Source: a virus (taxonomy: Duplodnaviria > Heunggongvirae > Uroviricota > Caudoviricetes). Taken from it: a stretch of DNA of 10,730 nt. Location: the IMG/VR virus record IMGVR_UViG_2703718851_000007, one strand, 5' to 3'. A program made the position numbers and the translations under genes. Position 1 is the stretch's first letter, and the number at the start of each line of letters is the position of its first letter. This document shows positions 1 through 9,890 of the stretch, one piece after another. The notes under the pieces were generated by a model. It ran no database searches, was not told the DNA's origin, and saw only the letters and a program-made list of their open reading frames with translations.

Positions 1-249
1 TTAGTCGTCATTGTCCATTGAGTTAGCTTTAGCGGCTGCAACAGCTTTTGCATCCTGCTCGACGAATTTTCTAGCTGCTTTCCTAAGCTGAGTGATTTTT
101 TCTGGGTCAGTAGATGGGTCTACAATAACTGCACCACGCCCTACGACCTTGATGTTTTTAACACCAGATTTGTTCAAACGATCGGCCATGGCTTGTCCGC
201 CTTTGACCAAATCATTCAGCCCAAACATCTTCATGACTAGTTCTGACAT
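1..249 (-). CDS. Small hypothetical protein (82 aa), Lys/Ala-rich, family not recognised
   Basis: Complete ORF on minus strand: ATG at 249-247, TAA at 3-1. Perfect Shine-Dalgarno AGGAGG (plus-strand CCTCCT 255-260) 5 nt upstream of the ATG. Product MSELVMKMFGLNDLVKGG...KNIKVVGRGAVIVDPS...; no confident family assignment by eye. Confidence 0.55.
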   Translation of the reverse strand: MSELVMKMFGLNDLVKGGQAMADRLNKSGVKNIKVVGRGAVIVDPSTDPEKITQLRKAARKFVEQDAKAVAAAKANSMDNDD

Positions 250-254
250 AAAGA

Positions 255-260
255 CCTCCT
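255..260 (-). promoter_or_regulatory. Ribosome-binding site (AGGAGG) of the 1..249 gene
   Basis: Plus strand CCTCCT at 255-260 = AGGAGG on the minus strand, spacing 5 nt to the ATG at 249. Confidence 0.6.
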
Positions 261-544
261 TTCAGTCCCCCCAATGTATCCTTTTGAGGCATTTATTGCT
301 CCCCGCAGAACGGGGCGCGGGATTTTACCATAATCTACGTACTGGCTCCAAGATTTCCCGCGTGTTCCTAGTACTAGGACAGCTGCCTGAGTACCAAGTT
401 CACCTATAACATATATGCTTGGTTCGAATTTTTGCAAGGTAAAAAGTGCCTTATGTTTAAGTATGTATGATGTGGATATGACGAACATAACCACATCACA
501 AATAACTTTTTATCAGGTTTCAGTGGCTATTTGTTCGGGCAGCA

Positions 545-1198
545 TCAAGCCTGTTTTGTATCATTAGTATTTTTAGCGGTATGTCCGTCATATGCAGCAA
601 GGTAACTGCCATAGTGACGAAATAGCATTTCTGGTCCCTTATGGCCCATCTGGCCTGCAAGCCAGAACAGGTTCGCACCACGGCTGATATGGCTGGTGGC
701 GAATGTATGCCTGGTCTGATATGGGTTACGGTACCGGATACCTGCTTTACGTAAGGTTGGTATCCACGCTTTTTTCCTTATCGCATCGGCGCTGGCCCAC
801 GGTTTGTTTGTCTTTGGATCTTCAAAGACAGTAGCATCCTTCATGAATGTAAATGGCTTCTGATTTATCAGCGCCAACATTGCCTCTTCTGTCAGTTCAA
901 CTTTACGAGTACCGGCTTTTGTCTTTGTTCCTTTGATAACACCGACAACACTTGCGCTCTGGACATGGGCAGTTTTTCCAACAAAGTCGATATCACGCCA
1001 TCGAAGGGCACATAATTCAGAACTACGCAGGCCTGTATGTATAGCGAACCGGAACAGATTTTCCCATTGTTTGTTTCCGGCTGCTGCTAGTAATGCATCA
1101 ACTTCTGCTGGTGATAGCGGATCAACCACGTAGCTGCTTTCTGCTTCTGACTTATCACTTTGGTAGCGCGAAGCAGTTAACCGCAATGCGTCGAATGT
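545..1198 (-). pseudogene. Phage tyrosine integrase, 5'-truncated (catalytic domain only)
   Basis: Minus-strand frame is open only between an in-frame TAA (plus 1199-1201) and the stop at 545; no ATG near the 5' end (first start-like codon is TTG at 1186). Translation carries tyrosine-recombinase catalytic motifs (HTGLRSSEL, RHTFATSH, MGHKGPEMLFRHYGSY) but only about 25 residues precede the catalytic domain, whereas phage integrases are typically 330-400 aa with N-terminal arm/core-binding domains. Confidence 0.7.
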
Positions 1199-1886
1199 TT
1201 ATCAGCTTAACGTTGCGAAGCTTCAGGCAGCGGCATTTTCTCAACTGTCAGATTCTGACCCGTCAAAATCTGACGCATCAAAATCTGACCCGTCAAAATT
1301 TGATGCGTCGAAATCTGGCAAAAAAGCGGGTTTTCACCCGTCAGAATCTGGCGGGGATCCGTCAGTAAAATCAAAACATGATCCGTCAGATAAAAAAACT
1401 TCTCGTCCGGACGCTTCGCAACCGGACACGCAGACGGCTGAACAGGAGTTTTTAACTCGCCATCCTGATGCGGTTGTATTCAGCCCTAAAAAGCGCCAGT
1501 GGGGAACGCAGGATGATTTGACCTGCGCACAGTGGCTCTGGAAAAAAATCATCGCCCTGTACGAGCATGCCGCCGAATGTGACGGCGAGGTGGTTCGTCC
1601 CAAAGAACCGAACTGGACAGCCTGGGCAAACGAAATTCGCCTGATGTGTGTGCAGGATGGTCGTACTCATAAACAAATCTGCGAGATGTACAGCCGCGTC
1701 AGTCGCGATCCGTTCTGGTGCCGTAACGTGCTCAGCCCGTCGAAGCTGCGGGAAAAATGGGATGAGCTTTCCCTGCGCTTATCGCCGTCCGTCAGCACGT
1801 ACACAGAAAAACGCGAAGACCCGTACTTCAAAGCCAGTTACGACAATGTGGACTACAGCCAGATCCCGGCAGGATTCAGGGGGTGA
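1167..1886 (+). pseudogene. Lambdoid replication-initiator (O-like) gene, 3' fragment carrying internal iterons; no start codon
   Basis: Plus frame is open from 1167 (after TAG 1164-1166) to TGA 1884-1886 with no ATG or GTG; the first TTG is at 1518 (the 122-aa ORF in the track). The frame encodes a pentapeptide-repeat linker (SDPSK-SDASK-SDPSK-FDASK) across the 15-bp iterons, then a C-terminal domain (...CAQWLWKKIIALYEHAAECDGEVVRPKEPNWTAWANEIR...). Iterons inside the initiator gene followed by an A+T-rich stretch is the lambda O/ori layout. Family assignment is by architecture, not a recognised sequence match. Confidence 0.45.
1249..1323. repeat. Five tandem 15-bp direct repeats (iteron-like, putative ori)
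   Basis: Units TCAGATTCTGACCCG / TCAAAATCTGACGCA / TCAAAATCTGACCCG / TCAAAATTTGATGCG / TCGAAATCTGGCAAA at 1249, 1264, 1279, 1294, 1309. Degenerate copies follow at 1341-1355 and 1386-1400, with an A+T-rich tract at 1362-1400. Confidence 0.7.
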
Positions 1887-1888
1887 TC

Positions 1889-2377
1889 ATGAGTCTTTTG
1901 AATGACGTTCAGAAATTCATTGAAGCCCATCCGGGGTGTACTTCCGGAGACATTGCGGATGCTTTTGCAGGTTACTCACGGCAGCGCGTTCTGCAGTCAG
2001 CAAGCAAGTTACGTCAGAGTGGTCGTGTGGCTCACCGTTGTGAAGGGGATACACGCAGACATTTCCCGCGCCTGACTGAGAGAGCGCAGGAGGCGGAACC
2101 GCAACCAGTTCGTGAAACCAGACCTGTGCGCAATTTCTATGTCGGCACTAACGATCCCCGGGTGATTTTGTGCCTGACCCGCCAGGCGGAAGAACTGGAG
2201 TCCAGGGGCTTATACCGTCGTGCTGCAACGGTGTGGATGGCGGCATTCCGTGAAAGCCACTCCCAGCAAGAGCGAAACAATTTTCTTGCGCGTCGTGAGC
2301 GGTGTTTACGGAAAAGCAGCAAGCGCGCTGTATCGGGTGAAGAGTGGTATCTGTCAGGGAATTACGTGGGGGCGTAA
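1889..2377 (+). CDS. PerC-family-like transcriptional regulator (phage-encoded)
   Basis: ATG at 1889 preceded by GGGGGTGA; the track ORF begins at GTG 1883. Stop TAA 2375-2377 overlaps the next start (TAATG). C-terminal segment ...TRQAEELESRGLYRRAATVWMAAFRESHSQQERNNFLARRERCL resembles the PerC/Pch motif (KGLWRRAA...W) as recalled; the N-terminal 100 aa are unassigned. Confidence 0.45.
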   Translation: MSLLNDVQKFIEAHPGCTSGDIADAFAGYSRQRVLQSASKLRQSGRVAHRCEGDTRRHFPRLTERAQEAEPQPVRETRPVRNFYVGTNDPRVILCLTRQAEELESRGLYRRAATVWMAAFRESHSQQERNNFLARRERCLRKSSKRAVSGEEWYLSGNYVGA

Positions 2378-2703
2378 TGACGACGTTAACTCAATGCCAG
2401 CAGCAGGTGCTGGATATGCTGATTTCTTACCAGAAAGAACGTGGCTTCCCGCCAACCAATCAGGAGGTGGCTACCATGCTGGGATACCGTTCAGTGAATG
2501 CAGCGGTGGAGCATCTTCGCGCACTGGAGAAAAAAGGCGTCATCACGATAAAGCGTGGCGTGGCCCGGGGGATAAAGCTTCATACCGCGGTGAAGGACGA
2601 CGACAGCGAGGCGGTCGGGATTATCCGCTCACTGCTTGCCGGTGAGGAAAACGCCAGGCTGCGTGCAGCCCACTGGTTACATGAGAGGGGCCTGAAAGTA
2701 TGA
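2377..2703 (+). CDS. LexA-like DNA-binding-domain protein lacking the S24 peptidase domain
   Basis: From ATG 2377: MTTLTQCQQQVLDMLISYQKERGFPPTNQEVATMLGYRSVNAAVEHLRALEKKGVITIKRGVARGIKL... aligns residue-for-residue with the LexA N-terminal winged helix ([68 protein letters not shown]), including the recognition-helix residues (S.NAA.EH). A hinge-like LLAGEEN (compare LexA VAAGEP) is present, but the protein stops about 20 residues later; the Ser/Lys peptidase domain is absent. The track ORF starts at GTG 2344; ATG 2377 is preferred by homology and coupling. Confidence 0.7.
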   Translation: MTTLTQCQQQVLDMLISYQKERGFPPTNQEVATMLGYRSVNAAVEHLRALEKKGVITIKRGVARGIKLHTAVKDDDSEAVGIIRSLLAGEENARLRAAHWLHERGLKV

Positions 2704-3305
2704 AGTTGATCCTTCCTTTCCCGCCCAGCGTGAACACGTACTGGCGACACCCCAACAAAGGGGCATTTGCTGGTAAGAGCCTGATAAGCGCGGCGGGGCG
2801 AAAATTTCAGAGCGCGGCGTGCGCAGCAATAGTTGAGCAGTTACGTCGTCTGCCGAAACCAACGTCGGCACCTGCTTCAGTGGAGATCGTGTTGTTTCCT
2901 CCGGATAAACGCACCTGCGCCAGCGCACCGCTGGATCCGCTGACCCGCGCCGTGGTGATTTCCCTGTTTACCTGGCGGCGGGCGGAGCCTGATGACAATG
3001 CCGACGTCCCGATGGGATGGTGGGGGGATACCTGGCCTGCGGTACAGAATGACCGTTACGGCTCCCGACTGTGGCTGCTTCAGCGCAGCAAACTGACCAA
3101 TCAGCTGGTGCAGACGGTAAGGGGGTATATCCGCGAATGCCTGCAATGGATGATTGATGACGGCGTGGTGTCCCGTATTGATCTGGATATTCGCCGCACC
3201 GGGATTAATGAACTGGGTAACAGTATCACTCTCTGGTGTCGTGACGGACCGGTAATGATTTCTTTTGATGATCTGTGGAGTGCGATAACGCATGGCGGAC
3301 AGTGA
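2700..3305 (+). CDS. Chimeric ORF: RusA-like (Holliday-junction resolvase) N-terminal fragment fused in frame to a GPW/gp25-like baseplate wedge C-terminus
   Basis: N-terminus MKLILPFPPSVNTYWRH...VEIVLFPPDKR parallels RusA (ITLPWPPSNNRYYRH...IRIECHMPDRRRRDLDN), but the catalytic Asp cluster is missing. C-terminal part (...RYGSRLWLLQRSKL...WMIDDGVVSRIDLDI...) resembles gp25/GPW baseplate proteins and sits immediately upstream of baseplate J. Start ATG 2700 overlaps the previous stop (ATGA). Confidence 0.45.
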   Translation: MKLILPFPPSVNTYWRHPNKGAFAGKSLISAAGRKFQSAACAAIVEQLRRLPKPTSAPASVEIVLFPPDKRTCASAPLDPLTRAVVISLFTWRRAEPDDNADVPMGWWGDTWPAVQNDRYGSRLWLLQRSKLTNQLVQTVRGYIRECLQWMIDDGVVSRIDLDIRRTGINELGNSITLWCRDGPVMISFDDLWSAITHGGQ

Positions 3306-4350
3306 ATTTCAGCGCCCGACGCTGGCAGAAAATATCAGTATGCTCCGTAACGATTTATTCGCCAGGCTGGACGTCAGCGACACGCTCCGGCGCATGGATG
3401 AAGACGTGCGGGCAAAGGTGTATGCGGCGGCGCTGCATACGGTTTACGGTTACATCGATTATCTGGCAATGAACATGCTGCCTGACCTGTGCGATGAGTC
3501 CTGGCTGGCGCGACATGCTGCGATGAAACGGTGTCCGCGCAAGGGGGCCACGGCTGCCAGCGGGTATATGCGCTGGGAAGGTGTCAGCGATGGCCTGAAG
3601 GTGACCGCCGGGAGTGTTATTCAGCGCGATGACCTGGTTCAGTACACGGCAACTGCCGATGCAACCAGCTCCGGTGGTGTCCTGCGCGTGCCGATCGCCT
3701 GCTCAAGTGCAGGTGCGGTCGGTAACGCTGACGACGGTACGGCATTAATCCTGGTCACGCCGGTGAATGGTCTGCCGTCTTCCGGTGTGGCTGACACCCT
3801 TACAGGCGGATTTGATACTGAAGAGCTGGAAACGTGGCGCGCCCGCGTCATTGAGCGGTATTACTGGACGCCTCAGGGCGGGGCTGACGGGGACTATGTC
3901 GTCTGGGCTAAAGAAGTGCCCGGCATTACCCGCGCATGGACATACCGTCACTGGATGGGAACGGGAACTGTCGGTGTGATGATTGCCAGCAGTGACCTGA
4001 TTAATCCCATTCCGGAAGAATCAACGGAAACGGCAGCAAGACAACATATCGTGCCACTGGCCCCGGTGGCAGGCTCTGATTTGTATGTATTCAGGCCGGT
4101 GGCACATACGGTGGATTTTCATATCCGCGTGACGCCGGACACACCAGAAATACGAGCCGCCATCACCGCGGAGTTGCGTTCGTTTCTTCTGCGTGATGGT
4201 TATCCGCAGGGAGAACTGAAGGTATCGCGTATCAGTGAGGCGATTTCCGGTGCGAACGGGGAATACAGCCATCAGTTGCTTGCACCGGTGGACAATATCT
4301 CCATTGCGAAAAACGAACTGGCGGTACTGGGGACGATTTCATGGACGTGA
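3292..4350 (+). CDS. Baseplate J-like protein (P2 gpJ / Mu gp47 family)
   Basis: 352-aa ORF. C-terminal motifs (...[33 protein letters not shown]...[24 protein letters not shown]...) parallel P2 gpJ (...ISVTSPSPACVTISVLS...LYLYPGPESEPIRAAAVKKLEAYI...). Gene order W-J-I-fibre is canonical. Start overlaps the upstream ORF by 14 nt. Confidence 0.8.
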
Positions 4351-4925
4351 CAAACGATGATTACATCCGCCTGTTATCGGCACTGTTGCCGCCCGGTCCG
4401 GCGTGGTCAGCCAGCGATCCGGCGATTGCCGGTGCGGCACCGTCATTAACCCGTGTTCATCAGCGTGCGGATGCCCTGATGCGGGAGCTGGATCCGCGCA
4501 CCACCACTGAACTGATAAACCGCTGGGAGCGTCTGTGCGGTCTGCCGGATGAATGTATTCCGGCGGGAACGCAGACCCTTCGCCAGCGTCAGCAACGGCT
4601 GGATGCGAAGGTTAACCTGGCGGGCGGCATCAACGAGGATTTTTATCTTGCACAGCTTGCTGCCCTGGGCAGACCAGATGCCACCATCACGCGATACGAC
4701 AAAAGCACGTTCACCTGCTCATCGGCCTGTACTGACGCGGTGAATGCGCCGGAATGGCGGTATTACTGGCAGGTCAACATGCCAGCCACCACCAACGCCA
4801 CCTGGATGACATGTGGCGATCCCTGTGATTCCGCACTGCGTATCTGGGGTGACACCGTTGTCGAGTGTGTGCTTAACAAACTCTGCCCGTCGCATACCTA
4901 CATAATTTTTAAATATCCGGAGTAA
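4341..4925 (+). CDS. Phage tail protein, YmfQ/DUF2313-like (gpI position)
   Basis: 194-aa ORF whose ATG 4341 overlaps the baseplate J stop (ATGGACGTGA). It occupies the slot between baseplate J and the tail fibre. Resemblance to the e14 YmfQ-type tail protein is from recollection, not an alignment. Confidence 0.5.
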
Positions 4926-4928
4926 TCC

Positions 4929-5507
4929 ATGCATCGTATAGACACGAAAACCGCGCAGAAGGATAAGTTCGGCGCGGGTAAGAACGGTTTTACCCGTGGT
5001 AACCCCCAGACTGGCACACCAGCCACCGATCTGGATGATGACTACTTTGACATGTTGCAGGAAGAACTTTGTAGCGTTGTTGAGGCATCCGGTGCCAGTC
5101 TGGAGAAGGCGCGGCACGACCAGTTGCTTACCGCGCTTCGTGCTCTGCTGTTAAGCCGCAAGAATCCGTTTGGTGATATCAAATCGGACGGCACGGTGAA
5201 AAAGGGTATTAACTTTCGCAGCCTGACCGACAGCATAGATACGTCTTCACCAATGGGACGCTTTTTCTTCCATGTCATGGGCGCACTTGCCGAAATGGAA
5301 AGGGAGCTGATAGTCGAACGTACCAGGGCGGGATTGGCTGCGGCTCGTGAAGAAGGGCGAATAGGTGGGCGTCGATCAAAGCTAACTGATGAACAGTGGG
5401 CGCAGGCAGGAAGGTTGGTTGCAGCAGGTGAATCACGACAGCGTGTGGCATTAATTTACGATGTTGGGATATCGACGCTATATAAAAAATTTCCGGCAAC
5501 CAGGTAA
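4929..5507 (+). pseudogene. Fusion of a tail-fibre N-terminal constant region (about 92 aa) to the C-terminal half of a Pin/Gin/Hin-family DNA invertase
   Basis: ATG 4929 with GGAG RBS. Residues 93-192 ([100 protein letters not shown]) are near-identical to the Pin/Gin C-terminal half including the HTH. The invertase N-terminal catalytic domain (active-site Ser about residue 10) is absent. Residues 1-92 ([47 protein letters not shown]...) look like a phage tail-fibre N-terminus. Confidence 0.75.
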
Positions 5508-5575
5508 ATCATTGAGTTATGCGACGATGATGACTGATGGTGGCTAATGCCATTGATCTCCGTTTAAATAAAAAC

Positions 5576-5595
5576 TACTGTATATAATATCAGTA
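5576..5595. promoter_or_regulatory. LexA operator (SOS box) overlapping the putative umuDC promoter
   Basis: TACTGTATATAATATCAGTA: palindromic CTGT-N8-(T)CAG with an AT-rich spacer, 17 bp upstream of the umuD ATG. Compare the E. coli umuDC box TACTGTATATAAAAACAGTA; the right half TCAG also occurs in the uvrA box. A TATAAT hexamer (5583-5588) lies inside the box. Confidence 0.7.
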
Positions 5596-5611
5596 TTAAT
5601 TGACGGTGATT

Positions 5612-6034
5612 ATGATGCAGTTTTTCACTCCCTCCGGGTTGCGTGCAGTGCAGCCGCTTCCACTCTATGGCGATCTTGTACCCTGTGGTTTCCCAAGCCC
5701 TGCTCAGGACTACGTTGAACAGCGTATCGATCTTAACGAGCTACTGATACAACACCCCAGCGCCACGTACTTCGTTAAGGCATCTGGTGACTCGATGATT
5801 GATGCCGGGATCGGCGAAGGCGATTTACTGGTAGTGGACAGTTCACGCAAGGCAGAGCACGGCGATATCGTTATTGCTGCGGTGGACGGGGAATTTACCG
5901 TTAAGCGCCTACAGTTATGGCCAACTGTCCAGCTTAACCCTGAAAACCGCGCCTGGTCGCCTATCATCATCGGGAGCGAAGAAACGCTCGATGTTTTTGG
6001 TGTGGTGACGTTCATCGTGAAATCGACGGGTTGA
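5612..6034 (+). CDS. umuD: UmuD (SOS mutagenesis protein, S24 peptidase-like, DNA polymerase V subunit)
   Basis: Strong similarity to E. coli UmuD over the whole length: cleavage site LVPC-GFPSP, catalytic Ser (KASGDSM) and Lys (EFTVKRLQL) all present. ATG 5612 chosen (MMQFF...); the track starts at TTG 5600. Stop TGA 6032-6034 sits 2 nt before the umuC ATG. Confidence 0.9.
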
Positions 6035-6036
6035 TC

Positions 6037-7305
6037 ATGTACGCGTTGTGTGATGTGAACTCGTTCTATGCCTCCTGTGAAACTGTATTTCGCCCGGATC
6101 TCAAAGGTAGGCCGGTTGTGGTGCTTTCCAACAATGACGGTTGTGTTATTGCCCGCAGCACAGAGGCAAAGAAACTGGGTATCAAAATGGGTGAGCCGTA
6201 CTTCAGGCAGAAGGACTTTTTCCGGCGCCATGGGGTGGTGTGCTTCAGCAGCAACTATGAGCTGTATGCGGATATGTCTAACCGGGTGATGACCACGCTG
6301 GAAGAAATGTCGCCGCGCTGTGAAATTTACTCGATAGACGAGGCATTTTGTGACCTCACTGGTGTACGTAACTGTCGTGATCTGACTGATTTTGGCCGTG
6401 AAATCCGTGCTACTGTTCTGCAGCGAACGCATCTGACAGTGGGTGTTGGCATTGCCCAGACCAAGACGCTGGCCAAGCTGGCCAACCACGCGGCCAAACA
6501 ATGGCAGCGGCAGACGGGCGGGGTGGTAGACCTGTCCAGTGTCGATCGCCAGCGCAAACTGATGGCCGCGCTGCCGGTTGATGAAGTCTGGGGCATCGGT
6601 CGGCGTATTTCGAAAAAACTGGAGGCGATGGGGATCAAGACCGTACTGCAACTCGCTGATACGGACATCCGTTTTATCCGTAAACATTTTAATGTCGTGC
6701 TGGAGCGAACGGTGCGTGAGTTACGCGGAGAACCCTGCCTGGCACTGGAAGAATTCGCGCCAGTGAAACAGGAAATTATCTGTTCCCGCTCTTTTAGCGG
6801 TCGTATCACGGAGTATGAAGAGATGCGCCAGGCGATCTGCAGCTATGCCTCGCGGGCGGCAGAGAAACTGCGTGGCGAGCACCAGTATTGCCGTTTTATC
6901 TCGGCGTTTGTGAAGACCAGCCCGTTCGCACTGAACGAGCCCTATTATGGCAATAATGCCTCCGTGAAGCTTCTGACGCCTACGCAGGACAGTCGGGATA
7001 TCATCAGTGCAGCCATCCGCTGTCTGGACGCCATATGGCAAGACGGATATCGGTATCAGAAAGCCGGGGTGATGTTGGGTGATTTCTTCAGTCAGGGCGT
7101 GGCCCAGCTCAACTTGTTCGATGATAACGCGCCGCGCCCGGGCAGTGAGAAACTGATGGAAGTGCTGGATCACCTCAATGCCAAAGGCGGGAGGGGGACG
7201 CTGTATTTTGCAGGACAGGGTATCCAGCAGCAGTGGCAGATGAAACGGGAAATGCTTTCTCCACGTTACACCACCCGATTCTCTGATCTACCCGTTGTCA
7301 GGTGA
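6037..7305 (+). CDS. umuC: UmuC (Y-family DNA polymerase V catalytic subunit)
   Basis: [22 protein letters not shown]...[11 protein letters not shown]...[29 protein letters not shown]... is near-colinear with E. coli UmuC (MFALCDVNAFYASCE...), with the catalytic Asp/Glu residues conserved. ATG 6037 preferred over TTG 6031. Confidence 0.92.
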
Positions 7306-7383
7306 TTTTCCGGTGACAGATTCTTCGGAAAACGGTGGATGAGTTTATTAGAAACGATAAATCAAATGTTCTTATTTTTGATT

Positions 7384-7420
7384 ACTAAGTCTCAGTTATA
7401 CAATTCGGCTGAGACTTAGT
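7384..7420. repeat. Perfect 12-bp inverted repeat (hairpin) between convergent umuC and the KAP NTPase gene
   Basis: ACTAAGTCTCAG (7384-7395), 13-nt loop, CTGAGACTTAGT (7409-7420). Lies at the GC-content transition; not followed by a clean U-tract on either strand. Confidence 0.5.
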
Positions 7421-7428
7421 ATGCCAAT

Positions 7429-9177
7429 TTATAGGCAAGAAATTGCGTGTCTTACTGTATTGTTTAAATCATATATCGCGCCATATTTAAAACTTTCTTG
7501 CTTACCTATGAAATAAATGTCAAGTTTTTGATTGAGGTATATAAGGCGCTGCTTTTCATTTGTGGCAAACTGAGATATGTTACTAATTCTATAATTACTT
7601 CTTAAAAAAGCGTTGAATTGCTCTATATCTTTAATGCTCCATTCTTTTAAAATGCACTTGGTCAAAAATGGTGCGCCAAGTACTTCTAGCGTTTTATAGT
7701 TTCCCATGGGATCTAATTTGAGTAATAAGTTAACATCAAATAAAGCCCAACCATCAGTTTCAATAATTTCCTTAATTGTCTTTAAGTTTTTTCTCTTTTC
7801 AATATTATTATGACGGCCTGATAATATTGAAAATATAAGTTTCCCATCATCAAAGCCACTAGTCCAACTACTGATTGGATTGTTGTTATGAAATTCAAAG
7901 TAAGTAATAATGTCCTCGTCACTAAATTCGAGTGATTTAGAACTCATGAACTGCAATGTTAGTAATGATGATTTTGGAAGATATTTATGATAAGTCAAAT
8001 ATTCATAGTTCTGAACCGCCCTAAGCCATTGGTGCAAATCACATGGTATTGTTCTAGAAATTAAACCAATAATCGTGGGGAAAAATTCTTTTTCATCTGT
8101 CTCCTGTAGTTCTGGTCGAGTTGAAACTGCAATATCAATTGTACTTAAAGGTGTTGGCACATAAAAAACATCGTCCAATATATCATAAAGAGAAACATGA
8201 CCACTGTAGTAATTTTTAAGGTGAATATTAATTTTATAATTGTGTAATGTAGACAAAAGTCTCGGTTCATGTGGATTTTCATCGCTGCTGGAATTTTGGG
8301 GTGGGATATGCTGGATGCTGTCAATGATCAGTTCGTCCATGGATTTGTTATGGATAAATAACAAGATAAAATATGACAAAATTGAGCTTAGTATGGTTTT
8401 AGAGGCGATTTTCCACTCTAGTTCAGGGTGGTTTTCTGCGTGTAAATATAATGGAAGTGCAGTATTTAAACACCTCATTAAAATTCTTATGTTAACTATG
8501 TTATGGTATGATATTATTTCTTCGAAAATCATTTTGTCTTCAGTGGGGAAGTACTGTAGTTTTTCTTCAATTATTCTCATATCTAATATGTCGCGAGGGT
8601 TTGGGTTGTAATGAAGTGAATCAGAAATAATTTTTTCTTTATGTTCTAATGACAGGTGGGATTCGGCAGATGTATTAGATATAACAATAAAATCCAAACT
8701 AGAGATTTTTGAGGTTGAATATAACGAATGACAATAAGTTAGTATTTCATTGGCCAGTGAGGGAGTGCTTAATCGCTCAATGTCATCTAATATAAATATG
8801 CCACTGAGTTTGGAGAGTATGTTCTCTCTTACACTTGAACCAATGGAACTGAACACACCATTAAGCACATTGGCACTAGCGGGAGAACCACTGCTTACAC
8901 TACCCAAACCAGAAATAGTATCTAACCCAGACTTAAGAGTGTCTATATCTTGAAGATAGTAGCAGTCAATAATCTTTGCTTTGAAATCTGCAAGAGACTT
9001 AACGCCTAGTAATGAAATATAATAAAACACATTAAGATCATAAAAACGAGGAAATACATTTTTAATAAAAAAAGTTTTACCTGTTCCCCATTTTCCATCA
9101 ATAAAAATAAGTCCATCTCTTTCGGATTGTAGAAGATGAACTATTTTTACAATCAAATTGCTATTAGAGTTTTCCAT
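7429..9177 (-). CDS. KAP-family P-loop NTPase (582 aa), AT-rich, horizontally acquired
   Basis: Walker A FIDGKWGTGKTFF at residues about 25-37. Walker B with the KAP-type Asp-Asp...Arg signature GIFILDDIERL about 90 residues later. An internal hydrophobic segment (TILSSILSYFILLFIH) is consistent with the membrane insertions described for KAP NTPases. Codon usage is dominated by AAT/ATT/TTT/AAA; GC is roughly 30% by eye versus about 50% for the flanking umuC. Confidence 0.65.
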   Translation of the reverse strand: MENSNSNLIVKIVHLLQSERDGLIFIDGKWGTGKTFFIKNVFPRFYDLNVFYYISLLGVKSLADFKAKIIDCYYLQDIDTLKSGLDTISGLGSVSSGSPASANVLNGVFSSIGSSVRENILSKLSGIFILDDIERLSTPSLANEILTYCHSLYSTSKISSLDFIVISNTSAESHLSLEHKEKIISDSLHYNPNPRDILDMRIIEEKLQYFPTEDKMIFEEIISYHNIVNIRILMRCLNTALPLYLHAENHPELEWKIASKTILSSILSYFILLFIHNKSMDELIIDSIQHIPPQNSSSDENPHEPRLLSTLHNYKINIHLKNYYSGHVSLYDILDDVFYVPTPLSTIDIAVSTRPELQETDEKEFFPTIIGLISRTIPCDLHQWLRAVQNYEYLTYHKYLPKSSLLTLQFMSSKSLEFSDEDIITYFEFHNNNPISSWTSGFDDGKLIFSILSGRHNNIEKRKNLKTIKEIIETDGWALFDVNLLLKLDPMGNYKTLEVLGAPFLTKCILKEWSIKDIEQFNAFLRSNYRISNISQFATNEKQRLIYLNQKLDIYFIGKQESFKYGAIYDLNNTVRHAISCL

Positions 9178-9254
9178 TATAATTGTTATCCTAATTTAAA
9201 GAGGTGTAAATAAAGCATGAAATAGTATAATGCTAATTTGAGGTAAAAACATTA

Positions 9255-9890
9255 TTATTCAATTGAAACAATAAGATATTCACCTTGATTTTTCGCATTA
9301 CCCATCGCTCGCGTAACTGCATGCCAGATAAACTTGTCAGCTTGCACGGCACCGTAGTCGGTAATCGCTTCTGCTTCCTTGCCTCGGCGTCTTGGCGCAT
9401 CCCATTCCCGGGCTGCCTCCGGTGACAATACAAGTGGCTGTCGGTCGTGTATATCAACCAAGCCTTCATCGGCCGCAGACGTCACTATTAAAAAACCTTC
9501 GGCCTCGTCACTACGTTCGAAGGGGCGCTGCCGATTGCCGCCATGAATATTGGCTACCCATCAGTTCGGTGAATGAAGTAGGGTTGTTTTTTTGCTATCT
9601 TCGGTCTTGTCGAGTAGGGCACCGAAGTTACCTTCAACGCCCCCTCTAAGAACCGTGCGTGAGAGTTTCCAGCTCACACGGCTCAAGCCTTATCAAACAC
9701 CACTGTGAAATGATGCGGCAGGTGCAGTCAGACGCGTGGTCCGGGATCGGATATAATCTGTCCAATCCGTGTCATATGGATTAAGTGCAGATGCGACGAG
9801 TCTGTGACGGACAATTTTGACGCTCTGAGCGTGAACCAGCCTCAGTATTGTAACTTTCCCCGTATCAGTGTCCCGATAAAGACCTGACAC
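9255..9890 (-). pseudogene. SRAP/YedK-like (DUF159, abasic-site processing protein) pseudogene, 5'-truncated with nonsense and frameshift lesions
   Basis: C-terminal ORF (9255-9485) reads ...AADEGLVDIHDRQPLVLSPEAAREW...GKEAEAI...FIWHAVTRAMGNAKNQGEYL, matching the YedK C-terminus (AADQGLVDIHDRRPLVLSPEAAREW...SWHPVSRAVGNVKNQGAEL). Upstream, a different frame gives KKQPYFIHRTDG-stop-PIFMAAIGS (YedK KKQPFFIYRADGQPIFMAAIGS: a Q codon is replaced by TAG), then a frameshift. Further upstream fragments (HLHL, GKVTIL) sit in two other frames. The N-terminal MCGR catalytic-Cys region is not present. Confidence 0.65.

Follow-up and report, generated by a model that had tools for sequence, protein, structure and literature searches.

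A chimeric tail-fibre–invertase reading frame in an ssrA-adjacent prophage remnant of Escherichia coli, probably formed by a microhomology-guided deletion

How does a single open reading frame come to begin as a phage tail fibre and end as a DNA invertase, and is its product likely to do anything? The frame in question is the ORF at 4929–5507 (plus strand, 192 residues) of the IMG/VR record IMGVR_UViG_2703718851_000007, a stretch of 10,730 nucleotides from a virus of the Caudoviricetes that is called the window here. From the letters of the window, the original prediction had read this ORF as a join, near residue 93, between the constant N-terminal part of a tail fibre and the C-terminal half of a Pin/Gin/Hin invertase, the invertible host-range segment having been excised. 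The fusion itself is borne out by PHROG, Gin, StfP and PinE alignments, which resolve the ORF into residues 1–91 of an Stf/StfP tail fibre and residues 82–183 of a Pin/Gin-type invertase. The best match to residues 1–91 among the tail-fibre PHROGs matched is phrog_1396 (E = 1.6e-47), and StfP/YcfK of the K-12 e14 prophage is identical at 89 of 90 positions. This constant 5′ part of stf (codons 1–91) occupies 4929–5202 on the plus strand, with its native start and a GGAG ribosome-binding site, and is collinear up to 5202–5205 with the stf genes of four other loci (L001, L002, L013 and L014). The conserved N-terminal, baseplate-proximal region of Stf or Mu S-type fibres is present, and at the chimera there is neither a C-terminal receptor-binding part nor a downstream tail-fibre assembly gene: invertase follows residue 91, and then comes umuD.

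The invertase portion was found to be the non-catalytic end of its family. Residues 82–183 of Gin (PDB 3UJ3) align without gaps with chimera residues 91–192 (E = 4e-46), placing the breakpoint at invertase residue 82, and the identity to residues 82–181 of K-12 PinE is 83%. The 3′ part of pin at 5203–5507 (plus strand; Gin 3UJ3, 1HCR and Pfam) encodes residues 83–183, comprising the end of the catalytic-domain fold, the E-helix, HTH_7 at approximately 5367–5498 and the stop codon. In Pfam, the Resolvase match is limited to model positions 91–144/145, whereas HTH_7 is matched over its full length (E = 1.5e-12), and the DNA-binding domain of Hin (1HCR) aligns to the last 43 residues (149–191), so that the predicted retention of the helix-turn-helix is confirmed. 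Alignment with the intact Pin proteins of two relatives (L001 and L016) showed that the stretch MLIGYVRVSTNDQ...DRLGRS, with the serine nucleophile and conserved arginines, is missing; the YVRVS motif carrying the Ser9/10 nucleophile, seen as the N-terminal MLIGYVRVSTNDQ of the L001 Pin, is absent from the chimera. Thus, the protein lacks the Ser nucleophile and Arg/Asp residues of the Din-family catalytic domain and has the E-helix and HTH_7 of the family, and no intact catalytic domain is present. With nucleophile and crossover sites both missing, the chimera is a remnant of, and not a member of, the Din invertase family.

An intact counterpart was found in E. coli NZ_CP062811.1 (locus L001), where a ~46-kb prophage that appears to be complete lies between ypjA and ssrA. 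The genes run in the order int, the immunity region, the O-like, PerC, LexA-like and RusA genes, Q, the lysis and head genes and a Mu-type tail, followed by baseplate J, ymfQ, stf, the invertible segment, pin, umuDC, a KAP NTPase gene and ssrA. Both flanks of the join in the window are collinear with genes that are adjacent but separated in this relative, within the same ypjA–ssrA interval: window 2906–5205 (gp46 to stf) maps to L001 4922–7221, and window 5200–9657 (the pin 3′ half, umuDC and the KAP gene) maps to L001 9001–13458. Other strains do keep the intact segment at this position, NZ_CP062811.1 among them. When window 4341–6100 was compared by megablast with 5426 complete E. coli genomes, the matches split exactly at the join. 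Up to 5202–5205, the ymfQ–stf region of e14-type prophages in ~1800 of the genomes matched; from 5200 onwards, a 'recombinase - umuD - umuC' stretch in three of them matched at 100%; the stf/pin join itself occurs in none of the 5426. In several complete genomes (H10 and H12–14), the feature under the stf match is labelled 'integrase'; these were considered as further fusions and rejected, being intact but misnamed tail-fibre genes.

Three-way alignment places the deletion junction at 5200–5202, an AAA common to both parents: the left parent diverges after 5202, and the right parent matches from 5200. The junction range of 5199–5204 lies within the interval 5170–5210 originally proposed for the join, with K91 coming from stf and K92/G93 from pin. 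The surrounding context is similar but imperfect, 9 of 11 positions being identical when the comparison is extended (GGtGAAAAcGG against GGgGAAAAgGG), and a microhomology of 3 bp has a chance probability of ~5%, i.e. it is weakly non-random. Intact stf alleles run on past the junction as ...GTGAAAACGGCTCTCGAAAACCTTGG.... Measured against L001, the window is short of 1785 bp (595 codons), in frame. The corresponding stretch of L001 contains the variable stf end, two small ORFs, a glycine-rich fibre C-terminus on the opposite strand and pin codons 1–82, and the first 244 nt of pin are gone from the window. That the variable part of the fibre, the invertible segment and residues 1–82 of the invertase have been lost thus agrees with the original prediction, as judged from the intact relative at the same locus. 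The further claim that tail-fibre assembly genes had been lost stands in part: the segment is absent, but the two small ORFs of L001 have no Pfam tail-fibre-assembly match, and their identification follows the analogy with e14.

The crossover sites of the switch were located in L001 by an inverted-repeat search and, independently, by a Din-site pattern. These 26-bp pix sites are CTCTCGAAAACCTTGGTTTGGGAGAA at 7222–7247 (pixL) and its inverted partner at 8677–8702 (pixR). The left breakpoint lies 3 bp outside (upstream of) pixL, not at the central dinucleotide, and the right breakpoint lies in pin codon 82. The window was scanned with two degenerate patterns, and the gix/hix-like sites envisaged in the original prediction were not found, there being no gix-, hix- or pix-like 26-bp site at ≤3 mismatches; as a positive control, the same Din-site pattern recovered both sites in L001. 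No pixL half-site remains at the junction, and at the same threshold L001 has no further matches, including in the stretches flanking the two breakpoints.

Identity to L001 was observed to be 97.1% to the left of the junction, with SNPs up to 5174 (14 of them in the 274 bp of the stf part), and 99.96% to the right (2 differences in 4458 bp, both in umuC), the 3′ half of pin having no DNA differences at all. Because the identity switches exactly at the stf/pin junction, the true parent may have been mosaic, or the join may have brought together two different elements. A direct parent, combining the stf allele of the window, an intact segment and this pin allele, was found in none of the 5426 complete E. 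coli genomes; the best left-arm match was 99.0%, at another locus. The size of 1785 bp and the content of the deletion are thus those suggested by a relative, and not read from the parent.

Two further joins of the same kind mark the rest of the window, which is a ~10 kb remnant of a ~46-kb prophage. Junction 1, at window ~1178–1179, joins int to the O-like replication gene (int′/′O) at a TA microhomology, with ~6.5 kb missing, including the repressor/cro (immunity) region. The integrase gene at 545–1186 (minus strand) is truncated to the C-terminal part of a tyrosine integrase (PF00589, blastn against L018 and junction alignment), is 85.7% identical to the int of the relative, and runs into the C-terminal part of the O-like gene, phrog_391 matching the ORF at 1518–1886. 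A 15-bp unit repeated 4.3 times (TCTGACCCGTCAAAA) at 1254–1317 resembles origin iterons inside the O gene remnant. Junction 2, at window ~2906–2908, joins rusA to gp46 (rusA′/′gp46) at a TAA microhomology, with ~21.6 kb missing; compared with the NZ_CP062811.1 prophage, this deletion removed Q, the lysis and head genes and most tail genes. The join created a second chimeric ORF at 2700–3305 (plus strand), in which the RusA N-terminus (residues 1 to ~70; phrog_34) is in frame with the GP46 baseplate protein (phrog_180 baseplate wedge and PF07409), as also supported by blastn and junction alignment. Junction 3 is the stf′/′pin join at 5200–5202, with 1785 bp missing at AAA. Between junctions 2 and 3, the baseplate J/gp47 gene (3292–4350, plus strand; PF04865, E = 3.5e-52) and the ymfQ or Mu Gp48-like baseplate gene (4341–4925, plus strand; PF10076, E = 3.6e-26; YmfQ in relatives) were retained, the latter directly upstream of the chimera. 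The ORF at 2377–2703 (plus strand) encodes a protein of 108 residues that consists of the LexA DNA-binding domain only (TIGR00498 positions 1–91), without the S24 peptidase domain; this domain-only protein is conserved among the early genes of phages of this type, across thousands of E. coli genomes. In an element with LexA-regulated umuDC, it could in principle be a non-cleavable binder of SOS boxes.

How widely is the chimera distributed? The exact protein is on record at NCBI and UniRef under the name 'recombinase family protein [Escherichia coli]', and clustering at 90% identity groups no other sequence with it. Contig LOPG01000017.1 of GCA_001576135.1 is 100% identical to the window. The identical junction was found in at least 24 E. 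coli contigs from NCBI draft and SRA assemblies, always between ypjA and smpB/ssrA, and the junction string was the same in 10 of 10 independent carrier contigs compared (L003–L012). Since the junction is identical in at least 24 contigs, it goes back to a single ancestral event, and the data point to one recent event inherited within a shallow E. coli lineage. Between carriers there are no more than 21 SNPs in 10.7 kb, 16 of which fall in one patch at 1805–2493. This patch of 690 bp spans the end of the O-like gene, PerC and the start of the LexA-like gene, and suggests gene conversion from a related prophage after the deletions. The chimeric ORF itself varies by one synonymous SNP and, in one variant of the protein, by the replacement V115A. 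These two variants, one of them nonsynonymous, give no signal of selection in either direction, and no carrier has a disabling mutation in the ORF.

A second, independent Stf::Pin fusion was found by protein search. P0003 (174 residues) joins Stf residues 1–67 to a different Pin allele at approximately residue 76, and is encoded at 7026–7550 of a contig from Logan ERR5173220 (L015), in another decaying ssrA-adjacent prophage. The cargo of that prophage comprises a GIY-YIG gene, Dcm and EcoRII, and it also contains a gp46::gp48 fusion. Compared with the intact prophage of NZ_CP027219.1 (L016), 2175 bp are missing, in frame, at a 6-bp CTGCTT microhomology. The right breakpoints of both fusions lie within pin codons 76–83, ~6 codons apart, a proximity with a chance probability of roughly 10%. 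Such Stf::Pin fusions therefore recur, as would be expected because many E. coli genomes have been sequenced and because a protein search detects in-frame joins only.

The closest known system is the P-segment/PinE switch of the e14 prophage of E. coli K-12 (ymfQ-stfP-tfaP-tfaE-stfE-pinE), a member of the Gin/Cin/Hin family. The window shares with e14 the upstream order baseplate J, ymfQ, stf, and the intact relative has the same inverted-repeat core, TTGGTTTGGGAGAAG, as has been reported for the e14 P segment (PMC12529663). Unlike e14, the window is without the whole switch, i.e. both crossover sites, the segment and the catalytic half of pin; its locus is ypjA–ssrA rather than icd, and the cargo downstream of pin is umuDC and a KAP NTPase rather than mcrA. 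Compared with the Mu G segment/Gin, P1 C segment/Cin and Salmonella Hin systems, the chimera aligns end to end with Gin 82–183, including the E-helix and HTH, but is without the Ser nucleophile, the N-terminal catalytic core and the flanking 26-bp sites. The e14 protein YmfN, annotated as a chimeric replication protein/terminase, likewise arose when a deletion in a decaying prophage of the e14 type put two unrelated phage genes into one frame, although the gene pair differs. Chimeric ORFs number two in the window (rusA::gp46 and stf::pin), and the L015 prophage has two more.

The ORF at 4929–5507 is very probably a chimeric pseudogene, left behind when an e14-type prophage with a Mu-type tail, decaying at ypjA–ssrA of E. 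coli, lost DNA in one illegitimate deletion that was independent of RecA and guided by microhomology. The ancestor would have carried the usual host-range switch: the constant region of stf, pixL, an invertible segment coding for alternative fibre C-termini, pixR and pin, followed by umuDC. The deletion would have begun 3 bp upstream of pixL and ended in pin codon 82, a length of 1785 bp if the intact relative is the measure, and would have taken both crossover sites, the invertible segment, the stretch upstream of pin and the first 82 pin codons with the catalytic Ser9/Arg. Two further deletions of like kind would have cost the prophage its immunity region and its entire block of lysis, head and tail genes, and the in-frame outcome at stf/pin would be happenstance. 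We infer this mechanism from the junction: the AAA lies outside pixL and the half-site is gone, which fits an illegitimate, microhomology-guided deletion. In favour of such decay, all three junctions of the remnant have microhomologies of 2–3 bp, with no site-specific or IS signature. The claim that the segment had been excised does not hold in the sense of a site-specific event, since both pix sites are lost and the breakpoints fall outside pixL and inside pin at a 3-bp microhomology. It is true that Din invertases can use secondary sites and that the left end is close to pixL, but a site-specific Pin deletion between pixL and a quasi-site inside pin has next to no probability: had the crossover been at pixL, the left half of the site should have survived, yet nothing of its 26 bp is left, and the L001 stretches flanking the breakpoints have no site-pattern match at ≤3 mismatches. 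Such a deletion is thus ruled out by the half-site missing at the junction. The same negligible standing applies to an assembly artefact, which is ruled out because independent NCBI and SRA assemblies yield the same junction in at least 24 contigs. It could nevertheless hint at the involvement of the recombinase or its site, against the preferred explanation, that pixL lies 3 bp from the left breakpoint and that both fusions break within pin codons 76–83. Loss initiated by the recombinase would mean that Pin cut pixL and pixR in a synapse that was then aborted, the ends being resected (~15 bp on the left and ~310 bp on the right) and joined by microhomology end-joining, in which case 'excised' would be correct in a loose sense. 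Both independent deletions do take in the invertible segment from end to end and extend only modestly beyond it on either side, the left end of the 4929–5507 fusion is 3 bp from pixL, and microhomology at the joins is what alternative end-joining in E. coli would leave. Such an extent is, however, forced by detection, because both gene ends must survive; the left end of P0003 lies ~100 bp from the end of the constant region and not at a site; the remnant's two other deletions show microhomology of the same kind although no invertase site lies near them; and wild-type Din invertases are established to religate efficiently within the invertasome. Initiation by Pin is therefore considered improbable.

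The chimera is in frame and has its native ribosome-binding site, which tells against reading it as a pseudogene, and a retained function has to be considered. In such a case, the protein would be a non-catalytic DNA-binding or dominant-negative factor (E-helix and HTH), occupying pix/gix-type sites or poisoning dimers of PinE, PinQ and PinR and so locking their segments. The ORF is intact, its Pin part is without DNA differences from an active-looking relative, and the second independent in-frame fusion retains almost the same part of Pin. On its own, the DNA-binding domain of Hin binds hix half-sites, and this is the domain that aligns to residues 149–191; residual binding of the chimera to pix/gix sites would by analogy be physically possible. 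Binding to the recombinational enhancer, which the original prediction had also envisaged, was not borne out, as Fis, not the DNA-binding domain of the invertase, is the enhancer binder in the Hin and Gin systems. The Fis-dependent enhancer lies in the 5′ part of the gin/hin coding sequence, and unlike these systems the window is without the 5′ pin coding region. A phenotype that a locked switch might alter is available, inversion of the e14 P segment with its PinE switch having recently been linked to defence against T2 (PMC12529663). Against a retained function, the chimera occurs in one shallow E. coli lineage and in 0 of 5426 complete genomes with no selection signal seen, the window offers no target sites, an in-frame join has a prior chance of one in three, and the second fusion would have escaped detection had it not been in frame. 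Furthermore, the native promoters of the chimera are presumably gone because the immunity region and the whole rusA–gp46 block are deleted, and promoter and terminator signals in 1–6100 were counted at or below shuffled expectation, so that promoter-like sites are not above chance. A functional chimera is thus very improbable. Equally far-fetched is the fuller scenario that the protein is made, sits on pix-type sites or forms dead heterodimers with PinE, PinQ and PinR, locks e14-type P segments and alters the StfE2-type anti-phage phenotype, the second fusion being a sign of repeated selection. The pseudogene reading is retained. Judged by the residues it has kept, the chimera, if made, should be able neither to recombine DNA nor to form a fibre, and it is probably without function; the host-range switch is permanently destroyed.

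The original prediction thus described the sequence correctly and was largely right in reading it, but the chimera looks like ordinary prophage decay and not like a new system. The stf::pin fusion has not previously been described as such, having been deposited only as a 'recombinase family protein', although it is without the catalytic core and is half a tail fibre; it should be flagged as a chimeric remnant in annotation. It is also a clean, datable case of an e14-type prophage losing its host-range switch while keeping its cargo (umuDC and the KAP NTPase). Outside annotation the fusion is of little importance, and biological interest would come only with a demonstration that the remnant interferes with other invertases of the Pin type.

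The retained cargo begins directly after the chimera. The umuD–umuC (Pol V) operon at 5612–7305 (plus strand; NCBIfam PRK10276 and PRK03609, and L001 annotation) has the same arrangement and spacing downstream of pin as in the intact relative. A perfect LexA (SOS) box, TACTGTATATAATATCAGTA, precedes umuD at 5576–5595 (plus strand; pattern search, 0 mismatches), indicating that umuDC has its own regulation, independent of the chimeric ORF. The pin–umuDC module is rare, a 100% match being found in three of the 5426 complete E. coli genomes, and a literature search found no paper on ssrA, prophage and umuDC together. Further downstream, the ORF at 7429–9177 (minus strand) encodes a KAP-family P-loop NTPase of 582 residues, in a region (7501–9500) of 31–37% GC; the protein matches the PADLOC candidate defence family PDC-S49 (E = 8e-14). 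The NTPase gene is flanked by umuDC on one side and, on the other, by the truncated pseudogene of an SRAP (SOS-response-associated peptidase) at 9255–9485. At 9609–9686 (minus strand), the Rfam group II intron RF00029 is matched over the full 77-nt model (53.6 bits against a gathering score of 40, E = 1.7e-8). No protein recognisable as intron-encoded adjoins the match, so that it seems to be the 3′ stub of an intron, and the small ORFs beside it, like those at the left end of the window, gave no Pfam matches. In L001, an IS3 element is inserted at the position of window 9652–9657, within the group II intron match.
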